From Candidatus Daviesbacteria bacterium (GTDB taxonomy: Bacteria > Patescibacteriota > Microgenomatia > Daviesbacterales > UBA10151), in the NCBI GenBank assembly GCA_016176335.1, contig JACOXI010000003.1, positions 386,477 to 450,476 on the forward strand: DNA of 64,000 nt. The letters are read 5' to 3'. Positions 58,795-59,947 of this stretch are shown here, piece after piece (the stretch's first letter is position 1; each line of letters opens with the position of its first letter). The position numbers and the translations under genes are program-made. The notes under the pieces are model-generated. The model was not told the origin of the DNA. It ran no database searches and saw only the letters and a program-made list of their open reading frames with translations.

Positions 58795-58911
58795 AGCAAT
58801 TAATAAATCCAATTTCAAAAATTATTATCAAAGACTCGAAAAAGGTTTTAAATAGATCTGACTTCTCAACCTTTAAAAATAAGTCAATTTTTGAGTACCA
58901 GTGATGTATAC

Positions 58912-59015
58912 TTGGATTTGACAAAGATTAGAAAGGAATTCAATAAACGTCATTTTGTTCCGTTAGAGGAAGGATTAAGAACTACGATTACTTGGCAAAA
59001 AAAATTATATGTCTA
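58912..59015 (+). pseudogene. Probable remnant of the C-terminus of an SDR sugar epimerase/dehydratase (LDLTKIRKEFNKRHFVPLEEGLRTTITWQKKLYV*)
   Basis: Translating this 215-bp gap gives a terminal ~33 aa matching the D.(S/T)K....LG(W/F).P...LEEGL..T..W tail of extended SDR epimerases. There is no matching start or N-terminal domain upstream. Confidence 0.3.
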
Positions 59016-59947
59016 ACAAATCCAGGAAGAAGTTAACACTTGTTACAGGAGCGGGAGGACTCTTGGGATACGCCATTCGACAGCTCGCTCCCAAAGATAC
59101 TGATTATATCACCCGCAGTGATGGAGATTTAACTGATTTTGCAAAGACGAAAAAGATATTTCAGAAAATCAAGCCTAACCAGGTTATACATCTGGCCGCT
59201 GAAGTAGCAGGTATTGGAGGCAATATGATGCATTCAGGTAAATTTTTCAGAGATAATATTATGATTAACATAAATATCTTTGAGGCTGCACGGATAAACG
59301 GCGTTGATAAACTTATCTCATTTATGTCTACTTGTGTTTTTCCTGATAAATGTAAGTATCCTCTAAATGAAAAGGATATTCAAAGCGGCCCCCCGCATCC
59401 TTCAAACTTTGGATACGCTTACGCAAAAAGGATGCTGGAAGTACAAAGTGCTGCTTATCGCAAAGAATGGGGCTGTAATTTTATCGTAGCTATACCTACC
59501 AATATATATGGTGAAAATGACTTTTGGAATTTAGAAGATGGCCATGTGGTACCCTCATTAATTCATAAATGTTTTCTGGCCAAAAAGAATAAAGAAGATT
59601 TCATAGTGTGGGGAAGTGGCAGGCCGCTACGTGAATTTGTTTATTCGCAGGATGTCGCCAAACTAATCTTATGGGCGATAGATGAATATAATGAGGAATC
59701 TCCCATTATTTTTACCAATAGCAAGGAGAGTAGCATTAAAGACCTTGTTGATCTGGTTGTAAGGGAAGTAGGTTTTAAAGGTAAAGTAATTTTTGATAGC
59801 ACAAAACCTGAGGGGCAATTTAGAAAACCATCTGATAATAGCAAGCTAAAAAAGTATCTACCTAATTTCAAATTCACCCCGCTTGATAAAGGTATTAAAA
59901 ATACAGTTGAGTGGTTTATCAAAAACTATCCAAATGTTCGAATGTAG
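59009..59947 (+). CDS. fcl: GDP-L-fucose synthase (GDP-4-keto-6-deoxy-D-mannose 3,5-epimerase/4-reductase), eukaryote/TSTA3-like
   Basis: [12 protein letters not shown]...[16 protein letters not shown]...[36 protein letters not shown]...[26 protein letters not shown]...[11 protein letters not shown]. From memory, this aligns closely along its whole length with metazoan GDP-fucose synthase. Confidence 0.75.
   Translation: [312 protein letters not shown]

Follow-up and report, generated by a model that had tools for sequence, protein, structure and literature searches.

In a 64,000-nucleotide (nt) stretch of a Candidatus Daviesbacteria genome (assembly GCA_016176335.1, contig JACOXI010000003.1, positions 386,477–450,476 of the forward strand; the whole stretch is hereafter called the window), the interval 58795–59947 consists of an apparently non-coding gap of 214 bp (58795–59008) followed by a 312-amino-acid (aa) open reading frame (ORF) for Fcl1, a protein resembling animal GDP-L-fucose synthase. 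The gap holds the relic of a short-chain dehydrogenase/reductase (SDR) gene that in relatives forms part of a conserved cassette. We put at roughly 70% the probability of the joint interpretation that this relic of a cassette SDR stands beside an intact Fcl gene of bacterial descent, and that the lost step is supplied by SDR359, a related enzyme encoded 1.2 kb downstream. The genes and gene remnants on which this interpretation rests are as follows.

56977–57840, forward strand: tktN, the first cassette gene, for a transketolase-like N-terminal subunit of 287 aa carrying the thiamine diphosphate (ThDP)/PP domain (Pfam Transketolase_N, 2.3e-45).
57871–58794, forward strand: tktC, for a transketolase-like C-terminal subunit of 307 aa with Pyr and C domains (Pfam Transket_pyr and Transketolase_C).
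58791–58889, forward strand: 5′ piece of the relic, codons 1–33 of a deleted UXS-like SDR gene (blastx, blastn).
58890–58897, forward strand: deletion junction of 8 nt (boundaries of the blastn segments shared by the window with loci L006 and L012).
58898–59016, forward strand: 3′ piece of the relic, the last ~38 SDR codons plus the stop, ending in ..STSDVYLDLTKIRKEFNKRHFVPLEEGLRTTITWQKKLYV (blastx, translation).
58861–59015, forward strand: 155-nt segment that is absent from the sister lineage L017/P0001 (alignment, junction sequences).
59009–59947, forward strand: Fcl1, an animal-type, Fcl-like extended SDR of 312 aa, predicted to be a 3,5-epimerase/4-reductase of nucleoside diphosphate (NDP)-4-keto sugars (profile and PDB matches).
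59953–60888, forward strand: methyltransferase-like cassette protein of 311 aa, of a divergent class-I S-adenosylmethionine (SAM) type, with the motif YEFGCGTGHNL.
61147–62226, reverse strand: SDR359, an intact UXS-like SDR with a 359-aa ORF, of a subfamily sister to that of the deleted gene.

The segment 58791–59016 is a gene relic produced by a recent internal, frameshifting deletion: its 226 nt comprise the two collinear ends of one SDR gene, now lying in different frames. The 5′ piece begins at an ATG (58791) that overlaps the tktC TGA, shares 50% identity with residues 2–33 of the intact SDR of locus L006 (blastx, E 8e-8) and continues as a stub ORF to a TGA at 58902–58904, while the 3′ piece (...SDVYLDLTKIRKEFNKRHFVPLEEGLRTTITWQKKLYV and a stop) ends at 59016, shares 64% identity with residues 297–343 of the same protein (blastx, E 2e-16; both E-values refer to a seven-sequence database) and overlaps the start of Fcl1 by 8 nt, as in relatives. 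In blastn the 5′ segment shared with L006 stops at 58889, and 819 nt of L006 (4377–5195) are represented in the window by only 8 nt (58890–58897), a net loss of 811 nt together with a frameshift; the deletion took codons ~34–300, including the Rossmann motif and the catalytic S-Y-K residues. An intact SDR of 343–348 aa occupies the same slot in L006–L009, L012–L016, L019 and L020 (L012 lying on a 1.06-Mb NCBI contig and L019 on one of 5.5 Mb, L014 being from a groundwater metagenome, L015 from an Omnitrophica metagenome-assembled genome (MAG) and L020 from a Veillonellales MAG), and L006–L009 carry an 86% identical orthologue of Fcl1, P0002, with a 345-aa SDR between tktC and the Fcl-like gene. 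Because five contigs, each assembled from a different sequencing run, carry the 227-nt relic region with 0 mismatches, it is no assembly error. The initial annotation had read in this gap, which it gave as 215 bp, the C-terminal tail of an SDR ending in a stop. That tail is present, the gap retains in another frame the N-terminal 33 codons as well, and the alignment with the SDR genes of relatives that had been proposed as a check matches both of its ends.

The gene that was lost can be characterized from its intact orthologues (L006 4281–5318 and five others), which are closest to the human UDP-glucuronate decarboxylase UXS1 (114–116 bits over the full length). Among NCBIfam models the L006 SDR finds only weak matches of the dTDP-glucose dehydratase type, and the model for GDP-mannose 4,6-dehydratase (gmd, TIGR01472) is not among its matches at E≤1e-5. 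The YxxxK catalytic motif aligns with that of UXS1, and the cassette SDR shares with the UXS1/ArnA/EvdS6 class the motifs STSEVY, N..xPRA.Y.EGK..(A/G)ET.C and D.RV..NFI. At the position of the class arginine, which we take to be R277 of UXS1 and R619 of ArnA, the L006 SDR has glycine instead (YGPG), and the same YGPG is found in SDR359. This arginine (in the motif GPR) is described as strictly conserved in the class and as a mark of decarboxylases of glucuronic acid (PMC10338323). Because it aligns with glycine here, decarboxylation by the cassette SDR is not secure, and its chemistry is best described as UXS-like on the strength of alignment. The lost SDR could have made the 4-keto sugar for the Fcl-like enzyme, a role like that of Gmd.

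A second state of decay is found in the sister lineage L017/P0001, whose Fcl-like protein (P0001, 333 aa) is 98% identical to Fcl1. L017 lacks the equivalent of window positions 58861–59015 (155 nt), a segment bounded by TCTGAC/TCTAAC microhomology that leaves its ends ambiguous by about 2 nt. Through this loss the reading frame passes from codon 24 of the dead SDR straight into codon 4 of the Fcl-like gene, yielding a 333-aa fusion; the Fcl-like gene has thus lost its own start and uses the ATG of the dead SDR, which overlaps the tktC stop. The 333-aa ORF of L017 and P0001 differ at 2 residues.

Truncation in this slot is not confined to these two lineages. L019 carries a partial tandem duplicate of the cassette (1–1646 against 4421–6921) with tktC, a 62-aa stub and a second Fcl-like copy (84.7% nucleotide identity); the stub corresponds to the first 53 SDR codons, falls in a 692-nt stretch with 100% identity to the full copy, and represents an independent truncated SDR in another lineage.

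Fcl1 itself is intact and, as initially annotated, resembles the animal enzyme over its whole length. Its best PDB matches (phmmer) are human GFUS (4e5y, 327.7 bits over residues 10–311) and the Naegleria enzyme (6aqy, 277.8 bits), against 168.9 bits for Brucella (7ll6) and 160 bits for E. coli (1bsv), and it is 47% identical to the human protein, 32% to E. coli Fcl and 39% to Fcl2, a second Fcl-like protein encoded in the window. The fold is that of PF01370 (2.4e-46), with the Rossmann motif VTGAGGLLG at residues 12–20, and the best NCBIfam model is GDP-L-fucose synthase (227 bits). GDP-L-fucose synthase (EC 1.1.1.271) converts GDP-4-keto-6-deoxy-D-mannose to GDP-L-fucose with NADPH; its catalytic set is Ser/Thr107-Tyr136-Lys140, with Cys109 and His179 as the acid/base pair of epimerization (numbering of E. 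coli GMER), and its partner Gmd is usually encoded next to it. Fcl1 and Fcl2 both retain Ser/Thr107, Cys109, Tyr136, Lys140 and His179, as expected of the two divergent Fcl-type epimerase/reductases that had been proposed; in an alignment using an E. coli Fcl sequence identical to 1bsv, the columns of C109, Y136, K140 and H179 are invariant and Ser107 of Fcl1 lies within MSTC.

The relatives of Fcl1 in the protein database number in the thousands. The best 120 are all 65–98% identical to it, and those with names come from Omnitrophica, Patescibacteria, Taylorbacteria, Desulfobacterales and Veillonellales (bacterial relatives 65–86%). When sampled members of the two Fcl clades were placed in a neighbour-joining tree with the human and E. 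coli enzymes, the window Fcl1 was nested among sequences of the candidate phyla radiation (CPR) and human GFUS branched off outside all of the bacterial clade, being 46.5–51.8% identical to every member of it. The clade in which Fcl1 sits is large, bacterial and the sister of animal GFUS, so that Fcl1 is an ordinary member of a bacterial subfamily and no import from a eukaryote. A contig scan with Fcl1 as query returned only two distant Pelagibacteraceae loci, which were used as a positive control for Gmd.

That SDR359 substitutes for the lost SDR is probable from the distribution of the two SDR types. Each of the transketolase loci among the 23 loci compared has exactly one UXS-like partner SDR, either of the cassette type or of the SDR359 type, and the SDR359 type occurs exactly where the cassette-type SDR is dead or absent; because of this one-partner pattern, SDR359 would cover the lost step. 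Its homologues in Campylobacter hyointestinalis (46% identity) and in the Patescibacteria locus L023 (61%) both lie directly upstream of tktN–tktC, with Fcl-like genes nearby. SDR359 is 40% identical to the L006 SDR and 34–40% identical to all cassette SDRs, which are 50–77% identical to one another; NCBI annotates it as 338 aa, starting at M22. A reciprocal loss was also considered, but the minus-strand SDRs of 190–204 aa that follow the cassette in L012 and L014 are unrelated to SDR359 and no truncated homologues of it. Purifying selection appears to act on the other genes of the cassette: when the window is compared with L017, the ratio of non-synonymous to synonymous substitution rates (dN/dS) is 0.13 for tktN, 0.16 for tktC, 0.11 for Fcl1 and 0.08 for the methyltransferase-like gene, with only 6–29 substitutions per gene behind these values. 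For the last of these genes the gene callers picked 311 aa, and the GTG at 59911 that opens a longer ORF is unlikely to be its true start.

The cassette to which the relic belonged has one order in all seven contexts (7/7): tktN, tktC, a UXS-like SDR (~345 aa), an Fcl-like SDR (306–312 aa) and a methyltransferase-like gene (~310 aa), in bacteria ranging from the CPR and Omnitrophota to Veillonellales. The transketolase-like subunits match the N chain (6yak, 261 bits for tktN) and its partner chain (6yaj, 197 bits for tktC) of the split transketolase of Carboxydothermus hydrogenoformans. The ThDP motif is kept in tktN (GDEELNEG...DEN), and Glu49 of tktC is invariant. The residues of yeast transketolase that we take to bind substrate, His263, His469, Asp477 and Arg528, are replaced in the cassette homologues by Tyr, Gly, Met/Leu and Leu/Glu, respectively (in the window by Tyr, Gly, Met and Leu): the canonical EWHG of tktN (yeast His263) has become EWYS, and in tktC and all of its cassette homologues THAG..GEDG and ..GRS.. 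have become VGSG..GTMG and ..TLT... The same loss is seen in L006, L012, L014, L015, L019, L020, L021 (Campylobacter) and L023. Because the canonical substrate-binding residues are lost and the ThDP features kept, these alignments suggest that the substrate of the transketolase-like enzyme is other than a sugar phosphate.

The methyltransferase-like protein matches no Pfam family above threshold, with sub-threshold methyltransferase matches in 7/7 cassette members; its profile finds marginal methyltransferase matches in the PDB (E 0.014), and a single-sequence AlphaFold model reached a confidence score (pLDDT) of 34, too low for use. Its family comprises 429 clusters at E≤1e-30, with fusions to transketolase Pyr/C, PDH-E1-alpha-like and B12-binding radical-SAM domains (P0385, P0401, P0420, P0446 and P0452). 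The fusions to transketolase-C or E1 domains link the protein to the ThDP enzyme more than to a simple methylation of fucose. Relatives of ~610–650 aa had been candidates for fusions with Fcl but are not such fusions; their partners are transketolase-C, PDH-E1-alpha-like and B12/radical-SAM domains.

The further neighbours of the cassette vary. Fucosyltransferase-family genes (GT10/GT11) are found near it in L006, L012, L014, L019 and L020, and L020 and C. hyointestinalis have genes for heptose activation on its flanks. The C. hyointestinalis locus (GCA_003289875.1, L021/L022; L021 506–11827) has two Fcl-like genes, a 344-aa UXS-like SDR and tktN/tktC; its neighbours include a true Gmd (61% identical to that of E. 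coli), ManC and RmlC-like cupins, and its heptose genes encode a GHMP-kinase, an SIS protein and a nucleotidyltransferase. In L023 (8001–14866) and L015 (11307–16913), the transketolase-like pair is joined by a DegT aminotransferase and by another ThDP pair, of the PDH-E1 alpha/beta type, which is the gene set proposed for acetyl-branched amino sugars.

Past SDR359 the window ends with two further genes.

62245–63129, forward strand: a GT2 glycosyltransferase, between SDR359 and Fcl2 (Pfam Glycos_transf_2, 2.2e-28).
63139–64000, forward strand: Fcl2, an Fcl-like gene of the E. coli/Brucella type, cut by the window end (PDB matches, P0121).

The window holds 287 of the 313 aa of Fcl2; the full protein is P0121 of Candidatus Daviesbacteria (100% identical), encoded on an NCBI contig of 456,706 bp and annotated as GDP-L-fucose synthase. 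Its bacterial character, recognized from motifs at the outset, is borne out by PDB scores of 214.5 bits for Brucella, 186.6 for E. coli and about 150 for human; against the NCBIfam Fcl model it scores 271 bits over 287 of 313 aa. The initial finding that the window contains no Gmd likewise stands: across the 64 kb, the best tblastn match to E. coli Gmd is a generic SDR at 30621–31523 with 22.6% identity, and no SDR of the window exceeds 38.5 bits against the gmd model (cutoff 415), whereas E. coli Gmd as query recovered a true Gmd at 50% identity and 360 bits in the control locus L010. No canonical Gmd lies within 6–10 kb of the cassette in 6 of the 7 contexts, and in the Omnitrophica locus L015 an SDR resembling Gmd is encoded 2 kb upstream, scoring 172 bits against a cutoff of 415. 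Beyond Fcl2, L017 continues with three minus-strand genes (11758–14466), for a dTDP-glucose-4,6-dehydratase-like SDR (149 bits, and no Gmd), a Methyltransf_13/14 C-methyltransferase-like protein and an FdtA-like cupin; because of this neighbourhood, Fcl2 may be part of a C-methylated deoxysugar pathway and not of fucose synthesis.

Several other explanations of these observations were weighed. That the gap is an assembly artefact is a negligible prospect, as nothing was found in its favour and the region is identical across the five sequencing runs. It is also very improbable that the relic is a decayed Gmd homologue, as the initial annotation had proposed for its decayed dehydratase/epimerase. 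The decay is real and the position fits, since gmd usually lies directly upstream of an Fcl-type gene, but the intact orthologues match UXS1 (116 bits) and dTDP-glucose dehydratase models best and align with E. coli Gmd at only 23% identity and 45 bits, when distant Gmds are typically at least 50% identical and the control was recovered at that level. Recent acquisition of Fcl1 from a eukaryote would account for a PDB score to human GFUS about twice that to E. coli Fcl, yet its nearest relatives are bacterial, span several phyla and share conserved synteny, GFUS branches outside their clade, and the GC content is uniform at 31–37% over 48–64 kb of the window with no signal of foreign DNA; we see hardly any room for it. 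Of the remodelling or acquisition suggested earlier, a recent remodelling of the locus is thus documented by the relic, and the horizontal origin from a eukaryote, for which phylogenetic placement had been named as a check, is contradicted by the nesting of Fcl1 among CPR sequences; the label ‘eukaryote-like’ is true as similarity and false as origin.

The cassette might instead be dead, its remaining genes leftovers awaiting decay after the loss of the SDR. One of five cassette genes is indeed destroyed and erosion has gone further in the sister lineage, but the other genes are intact with dN/dS of 0.08–0.16 against L017, the L017 deletion preserves an in-frame 333-aa ORF that is known from two or more sequence variants, five samples share one identical allele, and a related partner SDR lies 1.2 kb away, so that we consider this improbable. 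A more serious contender, though one we still regard as doubtful, is that Fcl1 is a canonical GDP-L-fucose synthase fed by a Gmd encoded elsewhere, its cassette position being irrelevant to its substrate. This would fit the complete catalytic set and the 47% identity to human GFUS, the database name GDP-L-fucose synthase given by NCBI to members of the clade despite sub-cutoff scores, the GT10/GT11 genes flanking the cassettes of relatives, the Gmd-like SDR of L015 (172 bits) and the true Gmd and ManC of C. hyointestinalis. It is at odds with the 7/7 contexts in which the Fcl-like gene follows a UXS-like SDR and a transketolase-like pair with no Gmd there, and with the lack of a canonical Gmd near the cassette (6/7), in the 64-kb window or past Fcl2 in L017. 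The interpretation that we prefer, a displaced cassette SDR whose step is taken over by SDR359, has points of its own weighing against it. The co-occurrence behind the substitution amounts effectively to one lineage (the window and L017/L018), at 34–40% identity SDR359 and the cassette SDR need not share a substrate, and the dN/dS values come from few substitutions. The L017 state fits either two successive deletions by way of the window state or one independent deletion of ~965 nt. Fcl1 scores below the equivalog cutoff of NF047922 (227 against 500 bits), a model apparently derived from the E. coli type; a Gmd elsewhere in the genome could let Fcl1 be a plain GDP-fucose synthase; and full-text literature searches for a cassette of transketolase, Fcl and UXS-like genes found no paper, only analogies.

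Under the preferred interpretation, the UXS-like SDR would normally make an NDP-4-keto sugar for the Fcl-like enzyme, the non-canonical transketolase-like enzyme would probably carry out a ThDP-dependent C2 transfer before or after the SDR step, and the Fcl-like enzyme would perform the final NADPH-dependent 3,5-epimerization and 4-reduction of the nucleotide-4-keto sugar; in this genome SDR359 (61147–62226) would supply the lost SDR step in trans. The product would be either GDP-L-fucose or a relative of it, and by analogy the cassette could make a methylated sugar resembling fucose that is branched or extended. We know of no branched sugar from these organisms. More tentatively, the cassette might encode a route to a fucose-like nucleotide sugar that does without Gmd and has yet to be described, in which the UXS-like SDR forms an NDP-4-keto sugar, the transketolase-like enzyme adds a glycolyl C2 unit, the Fcl-like enzyme sets the final stereochemistry and the methyltransferase-like protein modifies the product, with the relic marking a partner SDR displaced by a paralogue.

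The surroundings of the cassette are those of a glycosylation island. Among the ORFs scanned at 1–52000, most are glycan-assembly genes, including more than ten GT2 and several GT4 glycosyltransferases, many SAM methyltransferases and large membrane proteins, with two Wzx-like flippases (3330–4811 and 24247–25524) and a UDP-glucose/GDP-mannose dehydrogenase (29209–30606) followed by a 318-aa SDR (30603–31559). A promoter and terminator scan gave no signal beyond shuffled expectation. Identity between the window (52231–63998) and L017 is mosaic, at 66% over 52231–53982, 91.3% over 55200–58861, 98.6% over 59012–60882 and 89.2% over 60973–63998; dS between neighbouring genes ranges from 0.02 to 0.70, and a GT-C-like gene (53970–55196) is missing from L017. 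This mosaic suggests recombination within the island.

The finding is modest. It sets right the impression that a bacterium carries a eukaryotic gene, and it records how, in an uncultured lineage of the CPR, a gene decayed step by step and its start codon was captured. It also draws attention to proteins routinely annotated as ‘GDP-L-fucose synthase’ and ‘transketolase’ whose genes stand together in a cassette conserved between distant phyla and present in culturable Campylobacter, so that C. hyointestinalis offers an experimental handle. If a new branched or extended fucose-like sugar is indeed made, current annotations are misleading, and an unrecognized component would be present in the glycans on the surface of CPR bacteria and of some pathogens.

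Comparison with known systems sets out what the cassette shares with each and where it departs from them. Fcl1 has in common with human GFUS/TSTA3 (4e5y, 4b8w and 4bkp) the Ser-Cys-Tyr-Lys-His set and the motifs STC(I/V)FPD and EDGHV(L/V)P, but unlike it is encoded in a cassette of transketolase-like and UXS-like genes, and no Gmd partner is found in the window. Fcl2 is of the same type as E. coli Fcl/GMER (1bsv) and the Brucella enzyme (7ll6), at 187–214 bits, and differs in lying between GT2 genes beside SDR359 with no gmd neighbour. The Fcl-like heptose C4-reductases of Campylobacter jejuni (7m13/7anc and 7anh), which we take to act on GDP-4-keto-6-deoxy-heptoses, also belong to the Fcl family but score only 97–152 bits to Fcl1; the C. 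hyointestinalis locus mixes Fcl-like, UXS-like SDR and tktN/tktC genes with genes for GDP-heptose and GDP-mannose, a context recalling these reductases, whereas no heptose-activation genes are found among the window ORFs scanned. The split transketolase of C. hydrogenoformans shares with the cassette its two subunits, the ThDP motif and the cofactor-activating Glu.

The closest precedents for the proposed chemistry come from branched-sugar pathways. EvdS6, a UXS-type SDR, releases an NDP-4-keto-pentose, to which the ThDP-dependent addition of a two-carbon branch has been proposed (PMC10338323); ThDP enzymes of the YerE type branch NDP-4-keto sugars (PMC9306805). Like the cassette, the pathways of YerE (yersiniose) and of the proposed EvdU5/EvdS3 (eurekanate) combine an SDR that forms the 4-keto sugar with a ThDP enzyme (a heterodimer in Evd), SDRs of the reductase/epimerase kind and a methyltransferase (PMC9306805, PMC10338323); their ThDP enzymes are of the acetolactate-synthase or PDH-E1 type, whereas that of the cassette is of the transketolase type.

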